From: Pyrobaculum aerophilum str. IM2
GTDB taxonomy: Archaea > Thermoproteota > Thermoprotei > Thermoproteales > Thermoproteaceae
Assembly: GCF_000007225.1 (NCBI RefSeq)
Contig: NC_003364.1
Span: 1,590,001-1,622,000, forward strand
Length of the DNA stretch: 32,000 bases
Reading direction: 5' to 3'
The notes under the pieces: model-generated
Seen by the model: the letters and a program-made list of their open reading frames with translations, nothing else
Databases searched by the model: none
Told to the model about the DNA's origin: nothing
Shown: positions 15,786 through 32,000 of the stretch, piece after piece
Numbering within the stretch: position 1 is the first letter of the stretch
How the letters are laid out: each line of letters starts with the position of its first letter
Program-made: the position numbers and the translations under genes

Positions 15786-15820
15786 AGGTAAAACTTATAA
15801 ACCTGTATTTTTTTAATATT

Positions 15821-16312: not shown

Positions 16313-16369
16313 GAGCCCTCAAATTCCCATTTTTAACAACATTTTAATAGACGTATCGGACTTTATCTA

Positions 16370-16801
16370 ATGAAAATTGCAATAGCGTGCGACTTGGAGG
16401 GAAACGTCTTTCCGGGGCACTTCGCCCACGCTCCCAAGTATAGAATATATCAGTACGAAAATGGACAATTAAGGCTTTTGGAGGAGAGGGAAAACCCCCT
16501 TGGCTCTCTGCCTGACTACGACGAACATCACGGCCATGAGATAACAAGGCTTAACGCGGACTTCCAGGGGGAGGAGATGCCCCCAGCCCACGGCCTGCCT
16601 AAATACTCCTGGCTGAGGAGCAAGGTGTTGCCCGACGTGGACGTAATTATTGCAGGTGGGGCGTGTCAAACAAGTTATAGGTACTTCACCAGCCAGGGAG
16701 TGAAGATGTTGTTCACAGAGCCTGTGGAGGTGTCCGCCTTGGAAGAGTACATTGCCAGTGATCCGGTATCGTTTGAAGAAGCTCTTAGACAAGCGGAGTA
16801 A
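16370..16801 (+). CDS. NifX/NifB-like (dinitrogenase FeMo-cofactor-binding fold) domain protein
   Basis: The N-terminus MKIAIACDLEGNVFPGHFAHAPKYRIY is typical of this domain. A TATA-like ATTTTAATAG lies ~25 nt upstream. Confidence 0.55.
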   Translation: MKIAIACDLEGNVFPGHFAHAPKYRIYQYENGQLRLLEERENPLGSLPDYDEHHGHEITRLNADFQGEEMPPAHGLPKYSWLRSKVLPDVDVIIAGGACQTSYRYFTSQGVKMLFTEPVEVSALEEYIASDPVSFEEALRQAE

Positions 16802-16960
16802 AGAACTAATTTTTATAGAAATCAAAAATTTATAGTAGAAAATTTTTAAATAATATAAAGGAAGGACTTTTTAAAGATAATAATCATATATTTAAAGTTA
16901 ATGGAAATTATTAAATTTGTTGATTCTCATTATTTATTAAGGTGCATTAAATTGCGTTGT

Positions 16961-18058
16961 ATGTATGTTGTAGTTGGCGGTGGGGTTGTCGGGCTTTTCA
17001 CCGCCTATTATTTAAGCAGAGAGGGAGCAGATGTTGTTCTCATAGAGGCCGAGTCTTTAGCCCACTCCTCAAGGGCTGCGGCCGGGGTTTTGGAGTTTAC
17101 AAAATTCGAGCTTAATAGGATAAACGTGAGGGGCTACGCCTCTAGATATCTAAAAATGATAATAAACGGCAAGGCCGCAATACGCCGTATTGACCCGCTG
17201 TGGTTGTTGACATATCTAAAAGTATATGGCAGAGATCCTGACCCCAGCGTCTGGACTTTTATGAGCGAAATGGCCCAGTTCTCAAAGAGGGAGTATTTCA
17301 GACTGGCGGAGGAGTCTAACGATTTTGAGCTCCGGGAGGAGCCCGTGTTTGAAGTGGTGGAGGATGTAGAAAAAGAGGTGGAGGCGCTTAAGAAAGACCC
17401 CCTCAGGCCTAGGTTTGAAGTGGGGGAGTTAGACGGCCGTCAAGTCATTGTTTACCTCGACGCGGTCATTGTCTCCACAGACCTCCTCGCAGAACGGCTG
17501 TCTAGGGAGTTGAAAAACGTGAGAATATTAAAGGGCCGCGTTGCGCATTACGGCGACGGCTACGTAGTGCTTGAAGACGGCAGTAAAATCGAGGCCGAGG
17601 GGGTTGTCTTTTCAAGCGGCTGGTGGTGTAGAAAGCTGGGGATTCCGGTGGCCCCGCTGAAGGGATACGGCGTGAGGGCCACGACTTCTAAAAGGCCGAG
17701 TAGAGCCATTGCGGATTTCGTAAGGGGGGTTTTCGTAGTGCCGTTTACTAAATGGGTGAAAATAACGGGCAGATTCGACGTGGATCCCTACGGCGATTTG
17801 AAATACCTCCCGCCGGTGTTGGAGGCAGCGAGGCATTGGGCTGGGGACATCAACGCCTTTGACATAGCCGTCGGCTTTAGGCCCTGCACTCCCGACGGCC
17901 TCCCGGTTTTAGAAAAACGCGGCGGTGTCGTGATAGCAACGGGGACCTGCCGGCTAGGCTGGACCTACGGCCCTGCCATGGGGAAAATCGCGGCTGAGCT
18001 GGCCTTGGGGAAGCGTGGAGACTCTCCGCTATCTGCGCGACGTTTCGCCGCTAGATAG
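16961..18058 (+). CDS. FAD-dependent oxidoreductase (DAO / glycine-D-amino-acid oxidase family)
   Basis: Dinucleotide motif VVVGGGVVGLFTAYYLSREGADVVLIE right at the reset start. TATTTATTAA lies 21-30 nt upstream of 16961. Confidence 0.8.
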   Translation: MYVVVGGGVVGLFTAYYLSREGADVVLIEAESLAHSSRAAAGVLEFTKFELNRINVRGYASRYLKMIINGKAAIRRIDPLWLLTYLKVYGRDPDPSVWTFMSEMAQFSKREYFRLAEESNDFELREEPVFEVVEDVEKEVEALKKDPLRPRFEVGELDGRQVIVYLDAVIVSTDLLAERLSRELKNVRILKGRVAHYGDGYVVLEDGSKIEAEGVVFSSGWWCRKLGIPVAPLKGYGVRATTSKRPSRAIADFVRGVFVVPFTKWVKITGRFDVDPYGDLKYLPPVLEAARHWAGDINAFDIAVGFRPCTPDGLPVLEKRGGVVIATGTCRLGWTYGPAMGKIAAELALGKRGDSPLSARRFAAR

Positions 18059-18236
18059 GCCTTATCTCTACAACCCAGCCCTTTTCCACGACCCGAGTGG
18101 ACCCGTCGGCTTCTATTAAAAACTTGTCTTTTGTCTCGTGGACTACCACCCCCTCTATTACTATTAGATCTGTGGTCTGGTCGCAACGGGCGAGGACAAG
18201 CCTAACCCGGCGCCCGACTAGTCCACCGGAGCTCAT
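18051..18236 (-). CDS. Small Sm/SH3-like barrel protein, Rpp29 (RNase P/Pop4)-like core
   Basis: LVGRRVRLV...IEGVVVHETKDKFLIEADG...VEKG resembles the Rpp29 core (L.G..V.V...G..G.VVDET.NTL.IE). Start set at the ATG at 18236, which forms an ATGA overlap with the ferredoxin stop. Confidence 0.4.
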   Translation of the reverse strand: MSSGGLVGRRVRLVLARCDQTTDLIVIEGVVVHETKDKFLIEADGSTRVVEKGWVVEIRPI

Positions 18237-18547
18237 TGCAACGACGCCATCAATCCCCTCCTTAAGCTTCTCAACCACTTCCTCAACTCGGCGTTGGCAT
18301 CTTCTCTGGAGAGCTTATACCACGGCACTAGGGGGAGCCTCTCGGCTTGCGAGGCTCTCCTTATAGCCGCCACTGGGCACACGAAAACGCAGGCAAAATC
18401 GTCGTTACACCTGTCCCAGAGGAGAATTGGCTTTCCCTCCTCGTCGGGAATCAAGGCGCCGTAGGGGCAATAGGCTATACAGGCGCCGCAGGCAATACAA
18501 TTCTCCCTATAGATCACGACTTTCTCCACGGGTATATTTTTAGCCAA
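18233..18547 (-). CDS. 2x[4Fe-4S] ferredoxin-domain protein with basic C-terminal tail
   Basis: Cluster motifs CIACGACIAYCP and CNDDFACVFVCP. Confidence 0.8.
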   Translation of the reverse strand: MAKNIPVEKVVIYRENCIACGACIAYCPYGALIPDEEGKPILLWDRCNDDFACVFVCPVAAIRRASQAERLPLVPWYKLSREDANAELRKWLRSLRRGLMASLQ

Positions 18548-18594
18548 GTTTATAAATCTTATTACAGATTTATCTGAAAATATACACTAACGGC

Positions 18595-18885
18595 TTAGCC
18601 CTTGTTGCAAGCCTCTTTTATGAGCTGCGCCAAATTGGCCAGCCCCATTTTTAACGTGTAGAAGACTAAGACGTAAGTCCTCTCCCCGTCGCTAATTGCA
18701 AGACACTCGCCGGAACAAAGCCGCTCTTTAACCTCTTTAAAATCCGCCTTTGTAAAGGCAGGGGGGAGCTTCACAATACTCCCCTCGGCGTATATCAAAG
18801 TCTTTAAGTTGCAAGTACAGACTAGTTCAAACACCACATCTTCTACACACCGCCTTGCGTCTGCCACGTTTATTTCCACGTACAT
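18595..18885 (-). CDS. Hypothetical Cys-rich small protein (96 aa)
   Basis: The ORF is coupled to the upstream ORF by a TAATG overlap. It has 6 Cys and I recognised no family. Confidence 0.4.
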   Translation of the reverse strand: MYVEINVADARRCVEDVVFELVCTCNLKTLIYAEGSIVKLPPAFTKADFKEVKERLCSGECLAISDGERTYVLVFYTLKMGLANLAQLIKEACNKG

Positions 18886-19151
18886 TACACCACTAACACG
18901 GGCCTATTGGCGCAAATTTCTAAAAAAGTCAACGGCCCGCTGGCCTTAAACCCCGGGGGGATCTCCCAAGGGAGGTAAGTGCAGATTCTCACTTCGCCGA
19001 GAGCAGCCGCCTTGGCCGCAAGCCTTCTGCCCTCCATGGCTAGAAATATATGCCTGGGTTTGAAAATTTTCAATATCTCCAGCGCGTTTTCGTCGGGGGT
19101 TGTAACAAGGGCGCAGATTACCTCGTCCTCTTTATTAAAAACCTCATCCAT
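18885..19151 (-). CDS. Hypothetical small protein (88 aa), possibly DsrH/TusB-like fold
   Basis: Lies in an operon with the tusA-like gene. The pattern VICALVTTPDENALEILKIFKPRHIFLAMEGRRLAAK is loosely reminiscent of DsrH/TusB N-termini. This is weak evidence. Confidence 0.35.
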   Translation of the reverse strand: MDEVFNKEDEVICALVTTPDENALEILKIFKPRHIFLAMEGRRLAAKAAALGEVRICTYLPWEIPPGFKASGPLTFLEICANRPVLVV

Positions 19152-19342
19152 CCCCCCTCAAGCTCGTTGAACTCAACCAGCTCGTTTTTTGTAAACCTAC
19201 ACCACGTTGGTATGTCTTCTTTCGCACAGGGGTCGTTAGTTATAACCTCTAGAAAACCCCCTATTGGCACGTCGGCAATTGCCTTTTTTAACTCCACCGG
19301 CCCTAGACAGTGGGCCCCGCTTATTTTAATGGTTTTAATCAC
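19118..19342 (-). CDS. tusA: TusA/SirA-like sulfurtransferase
   Basis: About 74 aa. The N-terminal active-site-like ISGAHCLGPVELKKAI stands in place of the CPxP motif, and the overall TusA pattern is present (GGFLEVITNDPCAKEDIPTWC). Confidence 0.6.
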   Translation of the reverse strand: MIKTIKISGAHCLGPVELKKAIADVPIGGFLEVITNDPCAKEDIPTWCRFTKNELVEFNELEGGWMRFLIKRTR

Positions 19343-19396
19343 AACTCCTCCTCAATTTAAACAAAAAAACCTTATTTCCCCAGATGCTGGGAATGT

Positions 19397-19858
19397 CTAT
19401 ATAAACAGAGTAACTGCCGCGTCTTTCGCCCTTTCTAAAAACGTGGCGGCGCCGACTACGTCGTCAACGAAATCCGCCAGGGCTGATTTGTCTTTTATGC
19501 CGAACATCTCCATTGTAGTGGAGCAGGCGTAAACCCTGACATTGCCCATCGCCTTTGCCTGCCTGAGTAATTCATGCCAAGCGGGGAAGTTCATCTGTTT
19601 GATTGCCTGCGCCACCGCCGGCCCATATTCAGCAAAGTCCGCGGAGATTTTCGGCGGAGCGTTTAACATCTCTTTCCTAATGGCGTTTAGACCCCAGAAG
19701 GTGAAGAAGACTTCCACCTCCCAGCCCCCGGCGGCCGCGGCGCTGGACAGTATAGCCACGGGGTATAGTTTATCTACAGTGCCGGACCACGCAATTATTG
19801 CTAATTTATTTTTCTTTTCCACTTTTTCAGAACATACTCTACTTACGAATATTGTCAT
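19397..19858 (-). CDS. DsrE/DsrF-like (DrsE_2-type) sulfur-relay protein, paralog B
   Basis: See paralog A. It lies directly upstream of the tusA-like gene, an arrangement known from archaeal DsrE3-TusA pairs. Confidence 0.6.
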   Translation of the reverse strand: MTIFVSRVCSEKVEKKNKLAIIAWSGTVDKLYPVAILSSAAAAGGWEVEVFFTFWGLNAIRKEMLNAPPKISADFAEYGPAVAQAIKQMNFPAWHELLRQAKAMGNVRVYACSTTMEMFGIKDKSALADFVDDVVGAATFLERAKDAAVTLFI

Positions 19859-19920
19859 TTAAAAAAGTTGCGAACGAGTCCTTAGGAATAGGTATAAATA
19901 GCCCACTCGCATGTTATTTT

Positions 19921-20178
19921 ATGAGGAGGGAGGAGTACATCGTCTACAGGATTAAGTTCAAGAACTACCTCGACGCTGTGAAGTTTTTAGGAGACTTGGC
20001 CCAAATCGCCGAGAGGCTGGGCCACCACCCAGATGTGGAGTTGAAATACGTAAACCTAGTTCTCAAGCTCACTACTCACGACGCCGGGAATAGAGTTACC
20101 GATAGGGATTTGGCCCTGGCCAGGGAAATAGACAGACTTGTAGAGAGCTATAGGGATAGGATATCGGCAGTTGAGTAA
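19921..20178 (+). CDS. Pterin-4a-carbinolamine dehydratase (PCD/DCoH)
   Basis: Motif ERLGHHPDVELKYVNLVLKLTTHD. Start reset to the ATG at 19921, which has TATAAATA 21-28 nt upstream. Confidence 0.8.
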   Translation: MRREEYIVYRIKFKNYLDAVKFLGDLAQIAERLGHHPDVELKYVNLVLKLTTHDAGNRVTDRDLALAREIDRLVESYRDRISAVE

Positions 20179-21008
20179 TGGAGGCCAGGCTCATTGCCGC
20201 TGCGGCGCTGGCGTGGGGAGCGACGGCCGTAAGCGCGTTGGGATACGTCTTTTCCAACAGCGTGGTGGTTTTAGGCGATTTTCTACACGGCGTTGCCGAC
20301 GCTTTGGGCATCACCTTAGCCGTTCTAGCCGCATGGCTTGTCGCAAGAGATCCCGGCGGGGTGTTTACCTACGGGTATCACAGAGCGGAATCTCTGGCCA
20401 TATTTACAAACGCAGTGATGATACTCTTCGGCTCTATCTACGTCGCTTATGAAGCCGCGCTGAGGTTTTTTAAAGGAGTTGAGATCGACCCACTATGGAT
20501 GTTGTACTCCTCCTCTGCGGCTTTAATCCTCAGCGTCGTGTCTGCGGTGTTGTTGAAAGGGAGGAGTGAGGCGAATTTAAAAGCGGCTTATTTACACGCC
20601 TTAGCCGATTCTTTAACGTCAATTATAGCGCTTGCCTCCGCCGTCTCTATAATATTGGCGGGGATCCCCCTAATTGACGCCGTCTTAGGCCTGGGAATTT
20701 CGGCTTATTTATTCTCCAGAGCGCTTCCCCTGTTTGAAAGCTCTCTATTATCGCTACTGGACGCATCGCCTATAAACCCAGAGGCGTTGAAAAAAGAGAT
20801 TGGGCTACACGTACACGATATGCACATCTGGTCCCCGTGTCCCGATTTCAAAATAGCCACTCTACACATTGTAGTGCCCGAAAACTACACGTTAACAGAA
20901 CTGGAGGAGATAAGGAAGAGGGTGGAGCACACGCTGAGGAGCAGAGGTATAAACCACGTGACTATACAGTTCGAAAGCGGGCATTGTTCAAACAGCCACA
21001 GACACTAA
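20178..21008 (+). CDS. Cation diffusion facilitator (CDF) family metal efflux transporter
   Basis: Motifs HGVADALG, YGYHRAESLA and HALADSLTS, with a His-rich C-terminus. TAATG overlap with the PCD gene. Confidence 0.85.
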   Translation: MEARLIAAAALAWGATAVSALGYVFSNSVVVLGDFLHGVADALGITLAVLAAWLVARDPGGVFTYGYHRAESLAIFTNAVMILFGSIYVAYEAALRFFKGVEIDPLWMLYSSSAALILSVVSAVLLKGRSEANLKAAYLHALADSLTSIIALASAVSIILAGIPLIDAVLGLGISAYLFSRALPLFESSLLSLLDASPINPEALKKEIGLHVHDMHIWSPCPDFKIATLHIVVPENYTLTELEEIRKRVEHTLRSRGINHVTIQFESGHCSNSHRH

Positions 21009-21075
21009 GCCCTCAAAGCGCCTAAGACAAGAGTCGGCTACTAAATATTAAAAAGTAAGTTTAGAACCGGTACAT

Positions 21076-21621
21076 ATGGAGATTTTAGAAAGGCCTCTTC
21101 CCAAGCCGTGTACTGAGGATTATGTCTCTGCGCGTTTGTTAGAGTCTCTCGTGGAGGCTGGCTTGGCCTTGAAATTCCTCGAAGATGGTTTAGTTAGAAA
21201 CGCCGCTGGGAAGGCTTTTCAAGCATGGCGGGCGTTTTTGGCGGCTCTTCTCAGGCTTGAGCTTGATAGGCTTAAGGCCGTTGTAAAGACGGAGGAGGAA
21301 AGGCGCTGGCTTGAGTCCACTGCAGTGCCGAGAGTGCCCACTGGGAGAATGACTTCCCTATCGCAAATGCTAGAGGAGGTGGGACATGGGGGCATTTCTT
21401 TCGGCACTGACAAGGCGCTTAAATTACACGATTATCAATACCACGGCCCAGATCCGGACATGGCGTTGAGCAAATACCGCAACAGAGAGGAGGCGGCTAG
21501 AGACGTCGTGTTGCTTCTGAAAGAACTGGCTAGGCGCGTCGAGGCATTGAAACAGAGGGTTAAGTGGAGCGACGACTTGGAGAGGGCTCTTAGCGCTTTG
21601 AGGGCTGAAATAGGCGCGTAA
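21076..21621 (+). CDS. PaREP1-family protein, paralog 2
   Basis: RNAAGKAFQAW and LKLHDYQYHGPDP align with paralog 3 and, more distantly, with paralog 1. Confidence 0.6.
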   Translation: MEILERPLPKPCTEDYVSARLLESLVEAGLALKFLEDGLVRNAAGKAFQAWRAFLAALLRLELDRLKAVVKTEEERRWLESTAVPRVPTGRMTSLSQMLEEVGHGGISFGTDKALKLHDYQYHGPDPDMALSKYRNREEAARDVVLLLKELARRVEALKQRVKWSDDLERALSALRAEIGA

Positions 21622-21631
21622 ACGCGCTGGC

Positions 21632-23635
21632 TTACAGCGGGAGGGCGTATTTCGTCTTCATAAACTCCTCAATTGTTTTCTCCAACCTTTCCGGCTCTCT
21701 GACTGGGAGGCTACACGCCCCGCCTGCGCATATATACGCCGCTGGCTTGGGGCCGTTGAGCATGGCCCTAACGGCGGGGTCCTTGTAGGGCCAGTTCCCT
21801 GTGATTGGCACTACCACGTGCCAGGGCCTATACGCCCTTAACGCCGCTGTTATTAACTCCGGCGATTCGCCGACAATTACCGTGCGCGGCACGCCCAGCG
21901 TCAAGAGGTCCAGAGCTATCCAGAGGCCGGAGGCGGCCGGGCCCACCCTTTCCATTTTCCCATACAGCGCCGACACGGCCCTATAGGCTGCCTCCTTGTA
22001 CTTAGCGTCGCCCGTCACTTCTGACAGCGTTGCGAGGGCAATTGCGGCAACGGCGTTGCCAGAGAAATTAGGCGTGTCGAGTGCGGGGTAGTTTGGCGTT
22101 GGGATTATCTCGTCCACTGTCTCCACGTCTTTAAACCCGCCCTCCTCTAGGAATTTAGCGAGCAAGATCTCGCCCGCCGATTCAGCTACCTTTAAGAACT
22201 CCAGCTTCGCCGTGTGAGAATACCCCTCTATCCACGCCAGAATGCAGTAGGCGTAGTCCTCCAGCGCCGCGATTCCCACCGGCCCGCCGCCTCTGAACCC
22301 CCTCGGCAACCTCCCGCGTTGCCCCAGCTCGACACCGAACCGCTCAAGGGTTCTCACCGCGTGATACTTGTTGCCCACTGAGGCGAGTCTGCTGGCCAGC
22401 AATTCGGCGTAGGCCATGGCACAGCTCCACCCCACATATACAGTTGTGTCGGTAAACGGCGGCTTCCTCTTCCTCCTGGCTTCTATAAGGATTTGATAAA
22501 TTCTCTCCGCCTCGGGGCCTTCCAAAGGCCTAGCCACTCTTAACGTGGCCTTCCCCTCTGGCCAGGGGTATTCCTCGAGCCCGAAGTGTTTAGAGGCAAC
22601 TGGATACAGCTCTCCGAGGAGCTCCTTCAACTCTTCTAACGACCAGCGGTAGTAGCCCCCCTCCTCCCCATCCACGTCGGCGTCTTGACTGGCGTAATAG
22701 CCCCCCTCAGGGGCTCTCATAAACTCGTCAAGCCACTTCACGATGCCCTCGGCAGTCCTCTTGTAGAGCGCCTTGCCGAACTGCCTATACGCCTTTGTAT
22801 ACACGGCGAGCAACTCGGCGTTGTCTATCAACAACTTCTCGTAGTGCGGGATAAGCCACGACCTGTCAGTGGAGTATCTGAAAAAGCCGCCGAGTAGCTG
22901 GTCGTAGACGCCGCCTAGGGCCATGGCATCGAGAGTCCTCTCCGCCATTTTGCCGTAAATCCCAACCCCGTCGTAAAAATGCCTCATCATTAACAACTCC
23001 AGCTGGGTAATAGGCGGGAACTTCGGCGCGCCTCCAAAACCGCCGTACTCCTCGTCGAAAGACGCCGCCAAGGCGGCCAGGACCTCCGCCTGCCCCTCCC
23101 TCCTGGGCTCCCCGGGCGACGGCGAGTGCCACTTCTTGAGCTCTCTGGCCAAATCCTCGTGGAACTTCTCCACCTCCCCTCTCTTCTCTCTATATGCCCG
23201 CAATACCGCCTCGAGGACTTCCAACATGCCGGGGAGGCCCATTTCTCTACGCGGGGGGAGGTATGTGGCGGCCCATATCACCTGCCCCTTAGGCGTCATG
23301 AAGACGGTAAGAGGCCAGCCGGACTGCCCCGATATCAGCTGGGCGGCCTCTTGCAGACGCCTATCAACGTCGGGCCTCTCGTCGCGGTCGACCTTCACGG
23401 GGATGAAGTGTTTATTAATGAACTCGGCCACTTCCTCGTCGTTGTAAGTCCTCTCGTCCATTACGTGGCACCAGTGGCACCATACGGCGCCGACGTCCAC
23501 CAACACCGGCTTGTCCTCCCTCTCAGCGGCCTCAAAGGCCTCTTTGCACCAGCCCCACCACTTCACTCTGCTCTTAAGCCCCTCCAGCACGAAGGGGGAG
23601 GATGACGAGGATAGGCATCTCTCTCTGGCGTCCAT
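21632..23635 (-). CDS. Thioredoxin-domain protein of the DUF255/YyaL (SSP411-like) family with (alpha/alpha)6 barrel
   Basis: EDKPVLVDVGAVWCHWCHVMDERTYNDEEVAEFINKHFIPVKVDRDERPDVD is the family signature. About 670 aa. Confidence 0.85.
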   Translation of the reverse strand: MDARERCLSSSSSPFVLEGLKSRVKWWGWCKEAFEAAEREDKPVLVDVGAVWCHWCHVMDERTYNDEEVAEFINKHFIPVKVDRDERPDVDRRLQEAAQLISGQSGWPLTVFMTPKGQVIWAATYLPPRREMGLPGMLEVLEAVLRAYREKRGEVEKFHEDLARELKKWHSPSPGEPRREGQAEVLAALAASFDEEYGGFGGAPKFPPITQLELLMMRHFYDGVGIYGKMAERTLDAMALGGVYDQLLGGFFRYSTDRSWLIPHYEKLLIDNAELLAVYTKAYRQFGKALYKRTAEGIVKWLDEFMRAPEGGYYASQDADVDGEEGGYYRWSLEELKELLGELYPVASKHFGLEEYPWPEGKATLRVARPLEGPEAERIYQILIEARRKRKPPFTDTTVYVGWSCAMAYAELLASRLASVGNKYHAVRTLERFGVELGQRGRLPRGFRGGGPVGIAALEDYAYCILAWIEGYSHTAKLEFLKVAESAGEILLAKFLEEGGFKDVETVDEIIPTPNYPALDTPNFSGNAVAAIALATLSEVTGDAKYKEAAYRAVSALYGKMERVGPAASGLWIALDLLTLGVPRTVIVGESPELITAALRAYRPWHVVVPITGNWPYKDPAVRAMLNGPKPAAYICAGGACSLPVREPERLEKTIEEFMKTKYALPL

Positions 23636-23796
23636 GATAAAATCGAATTCTACATTAAAATACCACCTCTCGCCGCGGAGGTGGGCGCGTGGCCCCCGCT
23701 TGAGTTTACAGAGCGGCAGACGCCGTTGATCCAGGCGGCGTTATGTACCCCCGCTTGGGGCAATTAAATAATTTATACCAGTCCGCGGTAGCCTTT

Positions 23797-24285
23797 GTGG
23801 ACGTGGTAGTAGAAAAGCCCTGGAGGAATTTACAGGAGTACATTAAGGCGAGGCTTGAAGAGGCTGCTGTCGAGCTACAGCTGGCCTTAATTTTAATGGG
23901 GGAAGGCTATACGAGAAACGCCGCCGGGAAGTTATTTCAAGCGTTCAAGTCCTATTTGGCCGCGGCTGCCGGCGAGAAGAGGGAGGAACTCGCCGCCCGC
24001 CTAAGAGATGTGGACAAGTTAATTGCCTATATGCCAACGAGGGCTTTGGTAAAAATTTCAACGCTTTTAGGCCTTGAGAGAGAGGCCCGCGTGGCCCTAG
24101 CCTTACGCCAATATCAATACAACGGGCCAGACCCCGAGGGGATAACGTCGTTATACCCAGACAGAGAATCCGCCAAACGCGACTTCTGCTGGCTTGCCAA
24201 AAGGCTGATAGAGCTAACCGGCTCTGAAAAAGATTTGTATACTAAAGCCTGCGGAGCGCCAGAGGTAGACTCAAAATCCGATTAG
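23797..24285 (+). CDS. PaREP1-family protein, paralog 3
   Basis: Motifs RNAAGKLFQAF and LALRQYQYNGPDP. The GTG start at 23797 gives the same N-terminal length as paralog 2 and has AATAATTTATAC 18-29 nt upstream. The ORF track starts at 23743. Confidence 0.6.
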   Translation: MDVVVEKPWRNLQEYIKARLEEAAVELQLALILMGEGYTRNAAGKLFQAFKSYLAAAAGEKREELAARLRDVDKLIAYMPTRALVKISTLLGLEREARVALALRQYQYNGPDPEGITSLYPDRESAKRDFCWLAKRLIELTGSEKDLYTKACGAPEVDSKSD

Positions 24286-24997
24286 CGTTTTACAAGTCTG
24301 TTTCAATACTATAAAGCAGACGCGCTGAGGTGCCCAGGCTTTTTACTCCCAGACGTTGCGTACAACAGCCAAAGCGCTTGATATAGCCAACACGCCACTT
24401 CCATCTACAGACAAGCAGTGGCCAGGGCAGAGTTATAAGCCCTACGGCTACAGTCCCCTATATCTCCTCGGTGAAGAGAGAATAAAGCTTAGAAGATGGC
24501 CGCAGAGAAACCACATTAGGAGTACCGGAAATAGACAAAAACGAGCTGGACTTATTATCATACTAGATAAGTGTCTAAGAAGTTGACCAAAGCCCCTAAA
24601 GCGTTTATAACGACATACTTCAAAGGCGCATTCGCTACGTTTAATGAGGGAGATAGGGAAAAGAGATCTTGAAGTAGCTGAAATTTTAGGAGGCTGGAGG
24701 TTGCACATCTACCTTTACAATGCGGAAGTATTAACGCCAATAAATTGAGCTCTCCTTATTCTAACGCCCCTGGTGCTGGAATATAGCCCTCTAGAAAAAG
24801 CCTAGGAAAGGAGTTGCGGTCGGCAGTTACCCACATCCCTTTTATCCCCTGCAATTACTTGATGGGGCATCTGCAATTAGAGCTAATACCCAAAGGGAGC
24901 GCTTCGCATTTTTCCGCATCCATCCTCCTTTTTACTGAGAACACCTTGTTGGCGACGCCTCTTTACAAAAGCGCCTCTGACACCACGACTAATGGTC

Positions 24998-25483
24998 TTA
25001 TCTACGGTTGCCCCTCCCCCTTGAGAATAAGCGAAGCAGGAGGTAGTGCGCCGCAAGCCCCGAGAGGCCTACGGAGAGAACATCGGCCCACAAAGCCCTT
25101 GGCAACGGCGCGTGAAATACATAAGACAGCGCCCACGACAGCGTCAACCAGAGCACTATGTGCAAAACCCCCTTAAACACGCCGTGGCGCCACCCCAAGT
25201 AAAGCGGCATTAAAAGCACAAATGCCGCCGCAAAAATAGCGGTCAGCACAAGCGGAGGAATCATGTAAAAAGAGGCGAAGAGCACCACAATGGCGAGGGC
25301 CTCTAAAAGCCGCATTTTTAAATTAGGCACCTCGTGGAAGAAAAAGACCGTCCCCAATAAGGCTAGGTAAATACCGGCTAGGAAAAAGCCTGCAGTTAAT
25401 GGGTATATGACACCGTCCCCAACCCTATAAGCAAGAAGGAGGAGAAATAAAAAAGAGGACAAAAAAACGAGTTTTGAAATCAC
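24998..25483 (-). CDS. Polytopic membrane protein (about 5 TM), unknown function
   Basis: Strongly hydrophobic 161-aa ORF. Its start overlaps the stop of the 533-aa ORF by 1 nt. Confidence 0.5.
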   Translation of the reverse strand: MISKLVFLSSFLFLLLLAYRVGDGVIYPLTAGFFLAGIYLALLGTVFFFHEVPNLKMRLLEALAIVVLFASFYMIPPLVLTAIFAAAFVLLMPLYLGWRHGVFKGVLHIVLWLTLSWALSYVFHAPLPRALWADVLSVGLSGLAAHYLLLRLFSRGRGNRR

Positions 25484-27084
25484 TATCTCCCTACGCTATA
25501 AACGTCAGTTCCCACATAGGTCTGTCCGCGCCATGTCCATATCTTTGCAGCCACCGGCGAGTTAGTGCTAGAGCTCGGCGGCAAATACATATTCGTACCC
25601 ACATTGTAAACAAGTGTCTGAATACAATCCGGAGAGTATGCATTTTTATAGTAGACGCTGAAACTCTCCCATGTCATGTAAGTTGAGCCACCAAGACGTC
25701 TTAATATGATATTTACCAGGGGAGGTGAACTTTCTGCCCATCCCTTGATCCAGACTACTTCTGTTTTATCTCCGCTACTTGATATACGTAAATAGGCACT
25801 AGCAGATTGAAAGATATTTTGAACGATTTTTAACGCAATAGAATAATAATCAGAATTCTGATTATTACGACCTAATATGGCTAATATCCAGTCTATAGCA
25901 TCTATAACCCCCTGGCCTAAAGCGGCCCACCACTTTTCTTCAACCGCCTCATCACCATAGAGTACAACATTTCCTCCGACTTGCGGACCTCTTATTACCC
26001 ACTTTGCACCACAGTGCAATGAGTTTGTAGCCATAGATAGAACTATTTCACTGCTACTTGCTCTTATTTCAGAAATAACATTTAGCCGAGAGGTATAATT
26101 CACGGGATCGAGAGCTTGTAGTGTGTTTAAAATTAACATTTCACCCCAATGCCCATAAGGCACACCTACTACAGGGTTAATGTATTGAGAAGAAAATGGC
26201 TCCACCCAGCGATCAAAAATAACCTCAAGTGGTTGATCAGGCGAAAAGCTAATGCTCCCGCCGTAATTTAGGTAATCACCATAGACAATTGAAACTGATA
26301 AACCACCGCCAGTGCTTATTGCCTTCGAAATAATATATCCCCTTAGCGGTATTTTCAACTCCACAGTTGATATGTTATACGTGCATGTCCACATATGTGG
26401 CGTGGAGGATGCAGGAGCGATAAATCTGAAGCCGTAGTAAATCTGGTTTATATAATAGTACATCGCCAAGTATGGGCATATACTACCATACCATGTCACC
26501 TTCACAGTATGGGCAGGTATTCTTACAGTGCTGTAAGTAGTACCGCCATTAGCTGACACTATACCATCATAAGCCACATAGGGGCCAAAGAGTATAGCGA
26601 CTTTGCCATTACTCTGATCAAAGTTAATTGTTGTCAATGGATGCGTCGTTGCCTTCGAGGTGGCGACTTGAGCCAAGTTATTAACTGTCTTTTGATACTT
26701 CACAGCAACATAGACATTTATACTTGCCAACTCTGCGATCCCACTTGCTTTAATTCTTAACCCTATCTGGCTGTTCTGCGGCAGATTGGGCGATAGATTA
26801 GTCCATCCATTGCCGTAATTTGGTAGGGATATTGACATTGTGGTGATCTGCGAACATGTATCTAAATTGTAAAACTCTAAAGTGAGGTAGCCGCCAGTAA
26901 TATAGCCGTCAACCTTAACTCCGACAGTAAGGTTTTGCACCTCATACCCTACCCAGTGCATATTTTCTCGGCAAATGTAGGTGTTCCCTACTGGAGAATC
27001 CACTGGTAAGTATTCGCTAAAAGTGCGGGCTACGCTCACGGATTTGAAATACAAGCTCCCCACAGGGTATACCGTCATGCCCAC
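25483..27084 (-). CDS. Orphan 533-aa protein, Y/S/T/N/G/V-rich (beta-rich), low-GC gene
   Basis: Long uninterrupted ORF. Two hand-counted 120-nt samples gave 33% and 43% GC, against roughly 55-60% (estimated by eye, not counted) in neighbouring genes. No signal peptide and no family recognised. Confidence 0.55.
   Translation of the reverse strand: MGMTVYPVGSLYFKSVSVARTFSEYLPVDSPVGNTYICRENMHWVGYEVQNLTVGVKVDGYITGGYLTLEFYNLDTCSQITTMSISLPNYGNGWTNLSPNLPQNSQIGLRIKASGIAELASINVYVAVKYQKTVNNLAQVATSKATTHPLTTINFDQSNGKVAILFGPYVAYDGIVSANGGTTYSTVRIPAHTVKVTWYGSICPYLAMYYYINQIYYGFRFIAPASSTPHMWTCTYNISTVELKIPLRGYIISKAISTGGGLSVSIVYGDYLNYGGSISFSPDQPLEVIFDRWVEPFSSQYINPVVGVPYGHWGEMLILNTLQALDPVNYTSRLNVISEIRASSSEIVLSMATNSLHCGAKWVIRGPQVGGNVVLYGDEAVEEKWWAALGQGVIDAIDWILAILGRNNQNSDYYSIALKIVQNIFQSASAYLRISSSGDKTEVVWIKGWAESSPPLVNIILRRLGGSTYMTWESFSVYYKNAYSPDCIQTLVYNVGTNMYLPPSSSTNSPVAAKIWTWRGQTYVGTDVYSVGR
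25844..25867. repeat. Perfect 24-bp palindrome inside the 533-aa ORF
   Basis: TAATAATCAGAATTCTGATTATTA is self-complementary about GAATTC. Confidence 0.9.
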
Positions 27085-27090
27085 AGACGT

Positions 27091-27261
27091 CCCCTATCCC
27101 CCCCGGGCGCCCCGGGGGACACGGGGCCCCGGATCGCCAGAGGCTTCCGGGGCGGGCCGCGCCCGGGGCGTCGGCAACCCCCTCGGCGGGCTCTCCCCGC
27201 CTTCGGCCCGCGCGCCAGGGCCGCCCCGCCCTGCCCGGGGCGGGGTGGGGGGCGTAGGGGG
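27091..27261. other. GC-rich structured element 1 (candidate ncRNA or 5' leader; about 87% GC)
   Basis: My hand count gave 139 G+C in 27101-27260. The termini can pair (CCCCT/AGGGG plus CCCCCC/GGGGGG). G-quadruplex-type tract GGGGCGGGGTGGGGGGCGTAGGGGG at 27237-27261. The 61-bp core 27194-27254 is homologous to 28376-28436. Confidence 0.4.
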
Positions 27262-27495
27262 ACTCCATGTCTCTAATTCAACTGGTATTTAACATTGATT
27301 AACTGTGGGGGTGGCTGTTGTTCAAGGCTAGAACTGTGCCGTGTGCCGTCGGCGTTGTGGACAGTTTTGAATAAGAGCGGTACCGGATAGGTGTCTTTTG
27401 CCGTTCAAAAGAGGCGCTTCCCGCGTGGCTGGCGTTGTAGGCGGCTTTGAACAAAGACGGGGCGGAAGCCGCCTTGCTCAGCAATTTGCCAGTCG

Positions 27496-27653
27496 TCCTG
27501 ATATTGGCATTTGTCAAGAGGGTACACGCTTTCCTGATACGATTTCCTGATTTACATTTTTCGTGAATCAGGTAATCTATCAGGAACCTGAGTCAGGTTC
27601 CTGATACGTTTCCTGATCGATGAAAAAAGTTTGTCAGGAAACGATGTCAGGAA
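27496..27653. repeat. Array of TTCCTGAY boxes; the 123-bp dyad-symmetric core is 27531-27653
   Basis: Forward boxes at 27531, 27544, 27598 and 27610. Reverse boxes at 27567, 27579, 27633 and 27646. A 7-mer at 27496. Perfect 27-bp palindrome at 27579-27605. Confidence 0.9.
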
Positions 27654-27677
27654 AGCGCAAGTTCTCTTTACATTTGG

Positions 27678-28211
27678 CTATTTTTCCCTGCGGCTCACTC
27701 CGTATATCTTCACGTAGTTGCACATCTCCCCGCAGTACAGGCCGTATTGCTTGCAGTAGCGCTCCTCCACGGGGCGGCCGGGCGGCGGGGGCGGCTCCAC
27801 CAGCTCGGCCTCGGTGCCTGTGCACTTAAGGTACCGTCTGAACGCCTCGTAGGCCGCCCTCGTTATGTCCACTACGACGCGGCGCGTGCCGTTGTCCACC
27901 TCAAGAGTCCACCTCTCAAAGCCGCGGGGGAGCTCACCCCTGCCGCGGGGGAAGAGCGCCTCTCTAGGCAAGCGGAGGATATAGCGAGAGGCGTTGTAGT
28001 ACGGCATTGTGGTCCACTCCCCAGTGGCTACGATATATGTCTCTACAGACTGCGGCACGTATACTACCTCCACGGGCTCCCACCTCTGCCCCACCCAGAC
28101 GTAAATATGCAAACCGTCTACGTCTGGTCCGTTATCTACGTAAACTTCTATTTGCGTAGCGTAGATTAACGCCACTAGCGAAATCACTGCCAGCGCCCAA
28201 TTTGACAACAT
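27678..28211 (-). CDS. Orphan secreted/membrane-anchored protein with Pro-rich linker and Cys-containing C-terminal tail
   Basis: Start reset to the ATG at 28211 (MLSNWALAVISLVALIYA... signal anchor). The palindromic TATA TTTATAAA lies at 28228-28235. C-terminus: PPPPPGRPVEERYCKQYGLYCGEMCNYVK. Confidence 0.5.
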   Translation of the reverse strand: MLSNWALAVISLVALIYATQIEVYVDNGPDVDGLHIYVWVGQRWEPVEVVYVPQSVETYIVATGEWTTMPYYNASRYILRLPREALFPRGRGELPRGFERWTLEVDNGTRRVVVDITRAAYEAFRRYLKCTGTEAELVEPPPPPGRPVEERYCKQYGLYCGEMCNYVKIYGVSRREK

Positions 28212-28255
28212 GAATGGAAAAAAGGAGTTTATAAAGATTACGGAAAGTCTCAACC

Positions 28256-28438
28256 GGCCCCCACCCTGTTAGACGGCTTTAACAATAGCTCTCCGGAGAT
28301 CCTCCGGGACTCGGAGGCCGGGCAGGCTCATATCAACGCGCCGAGAGCTTGCCAGTGGGACTGACCCCCGACGATTCCCCGCCTTCGGCCCGCTTGCGGG
28401 GACCGCCTTTACCTGCCGGGGGCGGACAGAGGGGCGCC
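28256..28438. other. GC-rich structured element 2 (related to element 1)
   Basis: The 61-bp core 28376-28436 matches 27194-27254 (18/18 identical block TCCCCGCCTTCGGCCCGC; 47/61 overall, ungapped). A 9-bp stem GGCAGGCTC/GAGCTTGCC lies at 28321-28353. An oligo-T run lies at 28453-28457. Confidence 0.4.
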
Positions 28439-28626
28439 AGAACCTTCATGAGTTTTTCTTACCGCCGTAGAGAAGATCCTACTGCTGTTGTCGCAACCGC
28501 TGTTGCCTAGGAAATTCGGCTTTTTACCTTGCACTCAACTACTGCCTCAGCCACCGCGAGCGGGTAGCCAGTATTGTAAATACCGCGAGCCTGTGAAGAC
28601 ATTTAAAATCTGGCATAAACTATGGC

Positions 28627-29313
28627 ATGTTAGAGGTAATTCTCCTCTTCATTGTAATAGTCCTGGCGCTCGTGCTCTACCACGAAAGGGCGAAAGTAAG
28701 ACTAATCCAGCAAGAGTTTGAGATGCAGAAACGCGCCTTGGAGGAACAACTGAGGAGAGAGATCGCCGCCAGGGAGGAATTATTGAGGAGAGAACTCGCC
28801 GTCAAGGAGGAGCAGCTGAGGAAGGAGGCGGAGCTCAAACTCGCCGAGTGGATCAAGGAGAAGGAGCGGGAGATTAGAGAGGACGCCATCAGGAGGTCTG
28901 TGGCAGTTCTGCTGGGCAGAGTCGGCGAACAGATGGCGCCTCTCCTCATGTCCCGAGAGCTCAACTTCGACCCGAGGGACTGTAGGTACATCGGAACTCC
29001 CGTGGACTACGTCGTATTTAAGGGCCTCAGCGATAGGGGAGAGGTCGAGGAGATTTTGTTCGTGGAGGTGAAGACCGGCAAGTCATCGTCTCTGTCAGAG
29101 AGGGAGAGGGCTGTCAGAAAGGCCGTGGAGAACAAGAGGGTTAGGTGGGTTACGTATAATCTGAGAGGCGCTGTGGAAAAAATCGGCACATTTCTGGAGC
29201 GGGATATAAAGAGCGTAGTTGAGGGCCAAATGCAAGAGCGCCTGAGGGAAAGTGCTCAATCCCCCGCTGAGAAAGTCCCCGAGCCGGCAATTTTCTCCAT
29301 TGAAAATTCATGA
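28627..29313 (+). CDS. Membrane-anchored coiled-coil protein with C-terminal Hjc-like (archaeal Holliday-junction-resolvase-related) nuclease domain
   Basis: N-terminal TM MLEVILLFIVIVLALVLY, then an E/R/K-rich heptad region. The nuclease-like motifs GEQMAPLL...PVDYVVF...FVEVKTGK fit the E-D-ExK pattern of COG4741/Endonuc_Holl-type proteins. TATA CATTTAAAATC lies ~25 nt upstream. Confidence 0.65.
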   Translation: MLEVILLFIVIVLALVLYHERAKVRLIQQEFEMQKRALEEQLRREIAAREELLRRELAVKEEQLRKEAELKLAEWIKEKEREIREDAIRRSVAVLLGRVGEQMAPLLMSRELNFDPRDCRYIGTPVDYVVFKGLSDRGEVEEILFVEVKTGKSSSLSERERAVRKAVENKRVRWVTYNLRGAVEKIGTFLERDIKSVVEGQMQERLRESAQSPAEKVPEPAIFSIENS

Positions 29314-29651
29314 ATTTTTTCAGGTAAACAAAATTTGGGAAATTCTCAAGAAGGTTGCGGGCGAAATGGAGAGACGAGGGGGCCATTACCCCAATATGTT
29401 AGCTGAAAATAAAGACGTTTCTCAACTCTTGGAACCAGTAAAGGCGGCTGAGATTTATTTTCAACGCCTCAGCGAGAAAAACCGCATAGTCAGCACAAGA
29501 CGGTAATTAGCCCCCGGGCGAAGTGGCTTGCGGCTTACGCAATATGCGGCTTCGGCATTACGCCGTGGCATTTCGGGTAATTATGTGCCAATGGGGTACT
29601 GAAAAAAGTTCATTTTTAAAAATATTTTTATAAAAAAATCGATTTTTTCAC

Positions 29652-31037
29652 ATGGCTAAACTCAAGCCGGATCCCACTTTCTACCCAACGCCTAGAGACG
29701 CCATGCGCGCCCCTCCTGAGGATATTGCCTATGTAGCGGCTTTATATGTGGGTACTGGCGTGAATGCGCCGGACTTCCTCGCGGTAGTTGACGTTGATCC
29801 CAAATCCCCCACATACGGCAAGGTTATCTACAAGCTGGATTTGCCCTATATAGGCGACGAGCTACACCACTTCGGCTGGAATGCCTGTTCCTCTGCCTAC
29901 TGCCCAAACGCCAAGCCGTTTTTAGAAAGGCGGTATTTAATCGTCCCCGCGCTTAGATCTTCGCGAATTTATATCGTAGATACCAAGCCCGATAAGAGGA
30001 GGCCCGCTGTGGCTAAAATCGTTGAGCCGGAGGTAGCCGTGGGGAGGACCGGCTATACGAAATACCATACTGTTCACTGCGGCCCAGACGCCATATACAT
30101 CTCGGCGTTAGGAGGCCCCGACGGCAGGGAGGGGCCGGGCGGAATATTCCTACTGGATCACGACACTTTTGAGCCAATAGGCAGGTGGGAGGTCTACAGA
30201 GGCCCTCAGTATTTCGCCTACGACTTCTGGTGGAATCTTCCCAGCGGCGTTATGATTACAAGCGAGTGGACCGTGCCGAGGTGTTTTGAGGAAGGCTTTA
30301 GTTTAGAGTGCTTAAAAGAAGGCGCCTACGGGAATAAGCTTCATGTATGGGACTTGGCAAAGAGAAGGCATTTATACGCCATAGATCTCGGCCAGGAGCA
30401 CAGAATGGTGTTAGAGGTTAGGCCTCTCCACGATCCCACTAAACTAATGGGCTTTGTAAACGTAGTGCTTAACACTAAAGATCTGTCCAGTTCCATATGG
30501 CTCTGGTTTTATGAAGATGGGAAGTGGCAGGCGGAGAGGGTAATTGACATTGAGGCACAGCCTTTTGAGGGACCTCTGCCGCCTGTGTTAAAAGATTTTA
30601 AAATGGTCCCGCCGCTTGTCACAGATATAGACATATCCCTCGACGACCGCTTCCTATACGTCTCTCTGTGGGGGCTTGGGGAGCTTAGACAATACGACAT
30701 TACAAACCCGCACCAGCCTAGGCTGGCAGGCAGGGTGAAAATCGGCGGCTTGTATCACAGAGAGCCGCACCCCTCGGGGGCCGAGGCCACGGGGGCGCCG
30801 CAGATGATCTCAGTGAGTAGAGACGGGAGGAGGGTCTACATCACTAACAGTCTTTACAGCAGTTGGAATAACCAGTTCTACCCAGGCCTCAGGGGCTGGA
30901 TGGCAAAAGTAAACGTAAATCCCGAGGGGGGTTTAGAGTTAGAAAAGGAGTTTTTCGTGGACTTCGGCAGGGCCAGGGCCCACCAAGTGAGGCTTTGGGG
31001 CGGCGACGCCTCCACCGACAGCTTCTGCTACCCATAA
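29652..31037 (+). CDS. Selenium-binding protein (SBP56) family / methanethiol-oxidase-like
   Basis: N-terminus KPDPTFYPTPRDAMRAPPEDIAYVA, plus HHFGWNACSS and RIYIVDTKPD, typical of SBP56. Confidence 0.85.
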   Translation: MAKLKPDPTFYPTPRDAMRAPPEDIAYVAALYVGTGVNAPDFLAVVDVDPKSPTYGKVIYKLDLPYIGDELHHFGWNACSSAYCPNAKPFLERRYLIVPALRSSRIYIVDTKPDKRRPAVAKIVEPEVAVGRTGYTKYHTVHCGPDAIYISALGGPDGREGPGGIFLLDHDTFEPIGRWEVYRGPQYFAYDFWWNLPSGVMITSEWTVPRCFEEGFSLECLKEGAYGNKLHVWDLAKRRHLYAIDLGQEHRMVLEVRPLHDPTKLMGFVNVVLNTKDLSSSIWLWFYEDGKWQAERVIDIEAQPFEGPLPPVLKDFKMVPPLVTDIDISLDDRFLYVSLWGLGELRQYDITNPHQPRLAGRVKIGGLYHREPHPSGAEATGAPQMISVSRDGRRVYITNSLYSSWNNQFYPGLRGWMAKVNVNPEGGLELEKEFFVDFGRARAHQVRLWGGDASTDSFCYP

Positions 31038-31040
31038 CCC

Positions 31041-31577
31041 GTGGATCTTTTTTCCCTATATCCCGTCTTATTGGGAGTTTTACACGGAGTAGACCCCAGC
31101 CGTGGGTGGCTCTTCGTGGCTTATGCCTATCATTTGGGCAAAAGCAGACTGAGGGCTATTGCCGTACTCCTGGCCCTTTGGTATGGACACAGCGCGGGCC
31201 TTTATCTCAGCTATGTGTCCTACAACCTCTTCGCCGCAGTGAAGCCGGCGCTGGCCGTAGCCCTTTTAGCCGTATCACTACTGCCGCTTTTCGTGAAGAC
31301 GCACGGGTTTATAAGGCCGTGGAGTAAGACAGGGGCGCTGTTTACAGCCGCCTTATTAGCCGGAGTTATACACGGCGGGGGGTTAATGCTCGGGGCGCTG
31401 TGCGGCTTTTCAAATGCGGCGTTTTTTATACACATAGCGACAACTCTAGCAGTAATGGGGGCCATGGCCGCCATAGCCTCGCTGTCTTTATCAATTATAA
31501 GACGTGTGTGGATAAACTACGACTATATTTATGCGGCGACTGGAATAGCCATATCCATATATCTCCTCCTGGCTTAA
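31041..31577 (+). CDS. Polytopic membrane protein, unknown function (possible transporter)
   Basis: GTG start 4 nt after the SBP56 stop. About 5-6 hydrophobic segments. LGVLHGVDPSRGW is faintly reminiscent of DsbD_2/UreH-like TM motifs, which is weak evidence. Confidence 0.45.
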   Translation: MDLFSLYPVLLGVLHGVDPSRGWLFVAYAYHLGKSRLRAIAVLLALWYGHSAGLYLSYVSYNLFAAVKPALAVALLAVSLLPLFVKTHGFIRPWSKTGALFTAALLAGVIHGGGLMLGALCGFSNAAFFIHIATTLAVMGAMAAIASLSLSIIRRVWINYDYIYAATGIAISIYLLLA

Positions 31578-31590
31578 AAATGGGCGAGGG

Positions 31591-31596
31591 AAAAAA
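31591..31596 (-). terminator. Oligo-T tract (T6 on the minus strand) downstream of the peroxiredoxin gene
   Basis: A6 on the plus strand, 20 nt past the TAA at 31616-31618. Archaeal termination commonly uses oligo-T runs. Confidence 0.3.
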
Positions 31597-31615
31597 GGGG
31601 TTATTTCTAAGGGGG

Positions 31616-32000
31616 TTATTTCTGAGCGCCTATTTTCTCAGCCTCTTTTATAACCTCATCGTATGGAGGCTCGTCGCGCGGATCGTCGCTGTACCACACG
31701 TATCTGATAGTGCCGGTGGGGTCTATAATATACACAGCTCTTTTCGCCAGATGGTAAAGCGGCAGGCCGAGGAGGTTGGCTTGAACCACGTCGTACATGC
31801 CTATAACAATACGGTTGTAGTCTGACAGAAGCGGGAAGTTGAGTCTGTTGGCGTCTTTAAACGCTTTTAGCGCGAAGGGGCTGTCTACCGATATGGCTAA
31901 AACCTCGGCGTTGGCCTTGTTTAAAAGCGCCATTTTATCTCTAAATGTACACAGCTCCTTGGTGCAGACAGAGGTAAACGCGCCTGGGAAGAACAGAAGC
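31616..32000 (-). CDS. Peroxiredoxin (Bcp/AhpC-TSA family), 5' end outside the window
   Basis: The reading frame continues upstream of the ATG at 31933 to the window edge: LLFFPGAFTSVCTKELCTFRDK (peroxidatic Cys motif). Confidence 0.8.
   Translation of the reverse strand, partial: LLFFPGAFTSVCTKELCTFRDKMALLNKANAEVLAISVDSPFALKAFKDANRLNFPLLSDYNRIVIGMYDVVQANLLGLPLYHLAKRAVYIIDPTGTIRYVWYSDDPRDEPPYDEVIKEAEKIGAQK

Follow-up and report, generated by a model that had tools for sequence, protein, structure and literature searches.

A 779-bp fragment of probable foreign origin replaces part of a family-66 gene in the chromosome of Pyrobaculum aerophilum IM2

The locus described here is a 5.2-kb block (24.3–29.5 kb) within a 32,000-nt stretch of the chromosome of Pyrobaculum aerophilum str. 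IM2 (NC_003364.1, positions 1,590,001 to 1,622,000). The whole stretch is called the window, and its first letter is position 1. At the centre of the block lies a gene of P. aerophilum family 66, an uncharacterised paralogous protein family of the IM2 annotation, which is read in the window as two open reading frames (ORFs). With a probability of about 80%, this one lineage-specific secreted-protein gene of a native chromosome recently had 183 bp replaced by 779 bp of foreign DNA, whose source was probably a virus or plasmid. A first-pass annotation of the same DNA had read the entire block as suggestive of acquired DNA; foreign DNA is present and carries no mobility gene, as that annotation proposed, but it extends over 779 bp (27089–27867) and not over 5.2 kb. 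Two 'hypothetical proteins' of a reference archaeal genome are thereby recognised as fragments of a single, apparently recently inactivated gene, one of them a host–foreign chimera. For a hyperthermophilic crenarchaeon, the locus is also a rare and recent case in which foreign DNA was taken up by illegitimate recombination with microhomology, and both parental states can be compared.

A homology search with the 533-aa ORF returned approximately 90 homologues (E ≤ 1e-77), each of about 700 aa and all from Pyrobaculum or hot-spring metagenomes. The best of them, P0001 (710 aa), bears the source name 'P. aerophilum family 66 protein'. The 533-aa ORF corresponds to residues 178–710 of P0001 with P416S as the sole difference, and the N-terminus of a 191-aa ORF corresponds to residues 1–114 with F55S as the sole difference. 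Together, the two fragments span P0001 minus residues 115–177, at 99.8% identity to the respective parts, and the C-terminus of the 191-aa ORF is a foreign tail of 63 aa. What had been annotated as two separate orphan genes is accordingly one 710-aa protein in two pieces, belonging to a Pyrobaculum paralogous family of about 90 members, and the 'secreted Cys-tailed orphan' is a chimera that arose through the insertion and whose tail belongs to a foreign gene.

P0001 is encoded intact in six near-identical assemblies (L082–L087; for example, GCA_003400145.1), in which the gene order is that of the window: SBP56, Endonuc_Holl, the 710-aa gene, the 161-aa gene, PaREP1 and DUF255. In blastn comparisons with these assemblies, window positions 15475–27088 and 27868–32000 align at 98.5–99.9% identity. 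The sole polymorphic stretch between the strains is 27089–27867, where 779 bp in IM2 stand opposite 183 bp (codons 115–176) in L082–L087. An AlphaFold model of the intact protein (predicted local distance difference test score of 75.6) begins with a helix at residues 2–19 and continues in beta strands that form beta-sandwich or jelly-roll domains; the replaced codons include a disordered linker at residues 155–173. A Foldseek search of this model against PDB and BFVD returned only generic jelly-roll or beta-sandwich matches (template modelling score ≤ 0.16). An intron or intein was rejected as an explanation for the split gene because 183 bp of coding sequence are missing. The split gene is probably a recent, non-functional pseudogene. 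The features of the locus are as follows.

23743–24285: PaREP1 gene (Pfam match).
24286–24997: native non-coding spacer of 712 bp between PaREP1 and the family-66 operon (GC 0.461).
24998–25483, minus strand: 161-aa polytopic membrane protein, the second gene of the family-66 two-gene cassette.
25483–27084, minus strand: 533-aa ORF, the family-66 3' fragment, still open (residues 178–710 of P0001).
27089–27867: foreign fragment of 779 bp, standing for 183 bp of the family-66 gene (codons 115–176).
27089–27265: GC-rich element 1, 177 bp, within the insert (GC 0.847).
27266–27496: insert segment of 231 bp without a match.
27497–27685: palindromic box-array element of about 185 bp, comprising a 119-nt core (27533–27651) and outer arms of about 30 nt.
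27678–27867, minus strand: 'Cys tail', the 3' end (62 codons and stop) of a 105-aa gene resembling P0091, joined in frame to codon 114 of family 66.
27868–28211, minus strand: family-66 5' fragment (residues 1–114), with a signal/anchor helix and part of the first beta domain.
28212–28626: native divergent intergenic region containing GC-rich element 2 (about 28260–28450).
28627–29313, plus strand: PF10107 nuclease of 228 aa, membrane-anchored, coiled-coil and Hjc-related; a native neighbour.
29652–31037: SBP56 gene (Pfam match).

The interrupted allele is not an assembly artefact, because nine independent contigs carry the right junction and encode its 177-aa chimeric product, and a further contig, L001, has the left junction of the window. 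One of the nine comes from SRR606249, a run on a defined mock community of cultured strains, among which we presume IM2 to be included. All of these short-read contigs end within the insert, those entering from the right at approximately 27232–27605 and L001, from the left, at 27103, so that the breaks fall within GC-rich element 1 or shortly before it. At the right junction (marked by a slash), the target reads GTGGA/GCTGG and the donor GCGGA/CATAAC, with a 3-nt microhomology, GGA. Neither a terminal inverted repeat nor a target duplication is found at the ends of the insert. Junction microhomology without inverted repeats or duplication is the signature of illegitimate recombination, and not of transposition or site-specific integration.

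The donor can be followed through the foreign tail. Among 5.8 billion protein clusters, the 63-residue tail has a single relative, P0091 (105 aa), with 90% identity over 95% of the tail. The contig that encodes P0091 (L106, 1175 bp, ENA ERZ1669402) matches the window at its positions 921–1175 (window 27874–27622, 92% identity), and the alignment passes the end of the gene and enters the first boxes of the array, where the contig ends. The match runs through the gene end, and the insert, read on the minus strand, therefore starts partway through a foreign gene. Another protein of L106, P0092 (212 aa), has one relative only, P0093, which shares 81% identity and is encoded on L107, a contig of 8 kb (ENA ERZ1669411). 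The other eight proteins of L107 are all singleton clusters among 15 billion sequences, and its Pfam matches comprise only a class-II nucleotidyltransferase with an HD domain, a methyltransferase and a radical S-adenosylmethionine protein. On the basis of this orphan gene content, the donor is probably a virus- or plasmid-like element. The nucleotidyltransferase (L107 890–2203) is of the bacterial and eukaryotic class II type (PolyA_pol + HD), which is unexpected in a crenarchaeal context.

The starting state was probably a native, lineage-specific operon of two genes, encoding a secreted all-beta family-66 protein of about 700 aa and a membrane protein of about 160 aa. Two illegitimate joins then probably exchanged 183 bp of the disordered family-66 linker for the 779-bp foreign piece, either by end-joining repair with foreign DNA as filler or by integration followed by deletion. 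The captured piece comprises the 3' end of a small donor gene, one copy of a ten-box palindrome, 231 bp without a match and a 177-bp segment of extreme GC content, and the outcome is the probable recent pseudogene now seen as two ORFs, one of them chimeric. The case resembles microhomology-mediated capture of foreign DNA in that a replacement has taken place, the readable junction carries a 3-nt microhomology, the donor gene is truncated, and end repeats and a recombinase are lacking.

Several points weigh against this account. The donor is known from short metagenome contigs that carry no hallmark gene of a virus or plasmid, and the term mobile element is based on their orphan content. Searches of phage, plasmid and IMG/VR collections for the donor were empty: the 779-bp insert had no blastn match among phages and plasmids, the 212-aa donor protein had none by tblastn or in PHROGs and IMG/VR, and Pyrobaculum spherical virus, a member of the phage collection, is unrelated to the insert and lacks a box cluster. 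Apart from two short blocks that resemble native P. aerophilum intergenic DNA, the left 408 bp of the insert are without a match, and part of the insert could derive from elsewhere in the host genome. For the left junction, there is no donor sequence with which to compare it. Both halves of the gene are still open reading frames, and a TATA-like TTAAATA (27286–27292, minus strand) stands 17 nt upstream of an ATG at 27268, and residual expression is therefore possible.

The box array is the part of the insert that recurs elsewhere. The window has eight TTCCTGA sites, seven of them between 27531 and 27653, inside an imperfect palindrome with 89-nt arms. In the 119-nt core, CCTGA occurs at core positions 1, 14, 55, 68 and 80, and TCAGG at 36, 48, 61, 102 and 115. 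The arms of the palindrome are complementary at 25 of 25 box positions, and at 39 of the 64 other positions. Three further copies of the array, 71–83% identical to that of the window, are present on L107 (5215–5349, 6692–6865 and 7958–8047); they are intergenic and lie mostly at the 3' ends of genes. The window copy and both complete L107 copies have a core of exactly 119 nt, counted from their first CCTGA through their last TCAGG. The box positions at L107 5221–5339 are identical to those of the window, and those at L107 6711–6829 differ only in the position-55 box, which reads CCCGA. Approximately 30 nt of the outer arms are conserved as well. The constancy of the box positions, against spacers that vary, suggests an array to which a protein binds, and in the donor the ten-box element would most likely serve as an array of sites for a DNA-binding protein.

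The strict box core had no matches in the metagenomes of the Joint Genome Institute (JGI). A relaxed box pattern gave 42 metagenome loci, mostly by chance, of which only L145 and L148 clearly share the plan. In both, the core is 118 nt long, with a 1-nt shift, and nothing but the array is shared; the otherwise unrelated flanks contain small orphan ORFs and the gene of a MarR-like winged-helix protein. Scans of IMG/VR with the box patterns and with an 18-nt GC motif returned chance matches only. A different palindromic cluster, of eight GACCTGA/TCAGGTC boxes, was seen on two freshwater metagenome contigs (L123 840–1060 and L149 1530–1720) and may be an unrelated binding-site array with a similar half-site.

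The 779 bp, or the 185-bp box element within them, could in principle be a non-autonomous transposable element of the kind known as miniature inverted-repeat transposable elements (MITEs). Archaeal MITEs and palindromic intergenic repeats are exemplified by the Sulfolobus SM elements, and the box element is likewise short (about 185 bp), non-coding, palindromic, intergenic and present in multiple copies, with three diverged copies within 3 kb of L107, one copy in the 32-kb window and unrelated flanks in L145 and L148. However, 183 bp were replaced here, which is not a simple insertion, and the ends of the 779 bp are devoid of inverted repeats and target duplication. The box element lies inside the insert and came with the neighbouring gene end, exactly as the two are arranged in L106. 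Target duplications are not visible at the five complete box-element copies examined, no transposase is found near the insert, and a second copy is absent from the window and from every Pyrobaculum locus compared. Moreover, the conserved bases are mostly those of ten 5-nt boxes with constant spacing, a pattern that points to protein-binding sites and away from transposon ends. We regard a MITE-like origin as highly improbable, and capture by illegitimate recombination remains the preferred explanation.

The layout of the array also invites comparison with archaeal replication origins, whose origin recognition box (ORB) repeats surround an AT-rich element and which adjoin an initiator gene, orc1/cdc6 or whiP (PMC4010727). 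In each half of the array, a 17-nt A/T-rich spacer is surrounded by four boxes, two direct and two inverted, much as origin recognition boxes surround an unwinding element (PMC4010727), and the array could be the replication origin or partition site of the donor, captured together with a structured non-coding RNA (element 1) as one functional module. The likeness is one of layout. The boxes are 5–7 nt long, and the two spacers flanked by inverted boxes, at 17 nt, fall far short of a typical unwinding element. The presence of three copies within 3 kb of L107 is unlike an origin, and an initiator gene (orc1/cdc6 or whiP) is absent from the window, L106 and L107.

The RNA half of this proposal concerns GC-rich element 1, which is real and odd. 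Its GC content is 0.847, rising to 0.94 in 50-nt windows, and no comparable tract occurs elsewhere in the window or in any related locus examined. Structured RNA in hyperthermophiles typically has a GC content above 80%, and the two ends of element 1 are able to pair (27091–27117 with 27224–27250). Upstream of the element, the TATA-like TTAAATA of the minus strand might act as the promoter of an RNA or of a GC-rich ORF that is truncated. Against an RNA, the fold z-scores of element 1 are weak and not significant (−1.6 and −2.3), and element 1 has no homologues from which covariation could be read. Folds of element 1, element 2 and 27266–27502 (the last with z-scores of −0.4 and −1.3) are uninformative on both strands, at −0.4 to −2.3. 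There is no gathering-score match to Rfam in the window and no relevant match at E ≤ 10 in 24200–29700. Capture of an origin or partition site together with a structured RNA is therefore unlikely as an account of the insert, and the illegitimate uptake of an arbitrary foreign piece is preferred to it.

Element 1 was also considered as a coding sequence and rejected: long ORFs are open on both strands, as expected at 85% GC, and the block that it shares with element 2 falls in a different frame relative to the nearby ATG. This block is the right 61 nt of element 1, which match element 2 (GC 0.66) with 77% identity, including 18 exact bases (local score of 52, compared with 22 ± 2.6 for shuffled sequences). 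The left 38 nt resemble intergenic positions 1265–1302 of L082 (score of 49, compared with 20.8 ± 2.6 for shuffles); the version of this site in the IM2-like strain itself is more diverged. Element 2 is present in all strains with an intact family-66 gene, absent upstream of the family-66 paralogues and without a significant fold. The segment 27266–27496 has no match in the loci compared.

The native stretch that contains the 38-nt block in L082 (1203–1420), approximately 5 kb past the right end of the window and beside the gene of a pyruvate-ferredoxin oxidoreductase beta subunit, has features of its own. It carries a TATA-like box and a terminal T-run, and is about 80% identical between strains that are otherwise 95–99% identical (in comparison with L099, L083 and L084). 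It could be a fast-evolving small RNA gene; an RNase P-like RNA was briefly suspected, and L082 1000–2600 has no Rfam match. In the same assembly (GCA_003400145.1, L082 1203–2465), the 317-aa beta subunit is uncalled, probably through a frameshift or an assembly error; the gene is intact in L083 (343–1296) and L084 (1576–2529).

A broader proposal is that the insert samples an undescribed crenarchaeal extrachromosomal element, characterised by an invariant, protein-bound ten-box cis-element at gene ends (acting in regulation, partition or replication) and by a structured RNA of 85–94% GC with its own promoter. We offer this as a tentative suggestion, possible but rather doubtful. If it were true, P. 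aerophilum IM2 would be a culturable handle on both the cis-element and the GC-rich RNA. The window itself holds no new system, for which the block had been named the best candidate; the residual novelty lies in the ten-box palindromic element, which points to rare contigs of orphan genes, and in the extreme GC tract.

Outside the insert, the block is in all likelihood native P. aerophilum chromosome. The remaining window genes have ordinary redox and metabolic functions. The 712-bp spacer at 24286–24997 contains no ORF with a Pfam match and has a near-identical copy, by blastn, in the strains with an intact family-66 gene. The spacer, element 2 and the intergenic region 29314–29651 are common to all strains compared and unrelated to the paralogous family-66 loci. 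The opposing view holds that the whole of 24.3–29.5 kb was acquired as a single accessory island, for instance a provirus or plasmid in decay or a module for defence or for the cell surface. In its favour, the third-position GC content (GC3) of the 3' part of the family-66 gene is 0.41, compared with 0.55–0.64 in the paralogues and 0.59–0.75 in neighbouring genes; family 66 occupies different chromosomal positions in other Pyrobaculum genomes; the block is flanked by a PaREP1 gene; and among 185,579 species genomes none from Thermoproteales has a close relative of SBP56.

The strain comparison speaks against such an island, since the block outside the insert is fixed, in the same order and at 99.4–99.9% identity, in all seven P. 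aerophilum-type assemblies (the window and the six others), and no presence/absence polymorphism of the whole block was observed among close relatives. Pfam matches to an integrase or other recombinase were absent from the ORFs of 21.6–31.6 kb and from the larger ORFs of 0–15 kb, and none appears in the gene lists of L082–L087. The window has no tRNA gene, and no long direct repeat pair, or any direct repeat pair bracketing the block or the insert, was found. Nor are the nuclease, the spacer and element 2 tied to family 66 in other genomes, and the low-GC segment starts inside a gene and not at a gene boundary. The composition of the window (GC 0.513 overall) does deviate, with a minimum of 0.35 at 25700–25899 (200-nt window), but the deviant segments do not coincide with one bounded unit. 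We consider the island very unlikely and retain the reading of a native block with a small foreign replacement. Much of the first-pass description survives as description: the PaREP1 and SBP56 flanks with some 700 bp lacking a credible ORF between the first and the operon, the two GC-rich elements and the box array, the compositional mosaic, the coupled membrane-protein gene, the Hjc-like nuclease, and the lack of an integrase, tRNA target or att repeat pair. Its grouping of these features into one unit does not survive, and a defence-type function is not supported: the only PADLOC match is a weak, MotB-like one of the N-terminal region of the nuclease (ZorB, E = 0.0028).

Family 66 is found in tandem or divergent pairs in varied chromosomal contexts of other Pyrobaculum genomes. 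A profile search among 1.84 billion representative proteins gave 31 clusters at 50% identity, none of which has a Pfam domain. The gene in the window shares with other members the operon partner and the architecture of an N-terminal helix followed by all-beta domains, but the window copy is interrupted and its 3' part (the 533-aa ORF, GC 0.429) is unusually low in GC3 compared with the paralogues. In the intact strains too, GC breaks within the gene, from approximately 0.55–0.58 in the first 600 nt or so to 0.40–0.44 in the rest, and the paralogues show a mild gradient. This break suggests that the 3' body of this paralogue is foreign and was acquired in an older recombination.

The gene of the 161-aa membrane protein overlaps the stop of the 533-aa ORF by 1 nt. 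In the window, L082, L088 (twice), L108 (twice) and L110, a family-66 gene is followed by a membrane-protein gene of 161–189 aa without a Pfam domain; such a protein is what family 66 regularly has as its partner in the operon. The 161-aa protein has no match in Pfam, PHROG or PADLOC. A role of the family-66 protein at the cell surface is a reasonable guess, and the cassette of the two genes, which is multi-copy and restricted to Pyrobaculum, is probably a cell-surface module; it is a second pointer to emerge from the locus. In L083 (11022–11381; GCA_026414425.1), the partner gene is called at 119 aa and stands apart from the 710-aa gene, whereas other assemblies have an overlapping gene of 161 aa, which indicates a strain-specific frameshift in the cassette.

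The 228-aa protein to the right of the interrupted gene belongs to PF10107 (Endonuc_Holl), a family related to the archaeal Holliday junction resolvase Hjc, and matches the full length of the domain (E = 5e-60, 202 bits compared with a cut-off of 23.8, profile positions 1–158 of 159). It is a mere neighbour here, outside both the interrupted gene and the insert, and its gene never adjoins family 66 in the other genomes examined. Its coiled-coil segment contains three tandem repeats of 33 nt, or 11 codons (28734–28832).

SBP56, of the selenium-binding protein family, returned 597 matches, with the best in Metallosphaera (66% identity) and in a Marsarchaeota metagenome-assembled genome (67%), and many in bacteria (55–62%). 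A scan of the 185,579 species genomes listed 80 loci, all at ≤67% identity and from bacteria, Metallosphaera and Marsarchaeota, with none from Thermoproteales. The gene may have been acquired horizontally in P. aerophilum.

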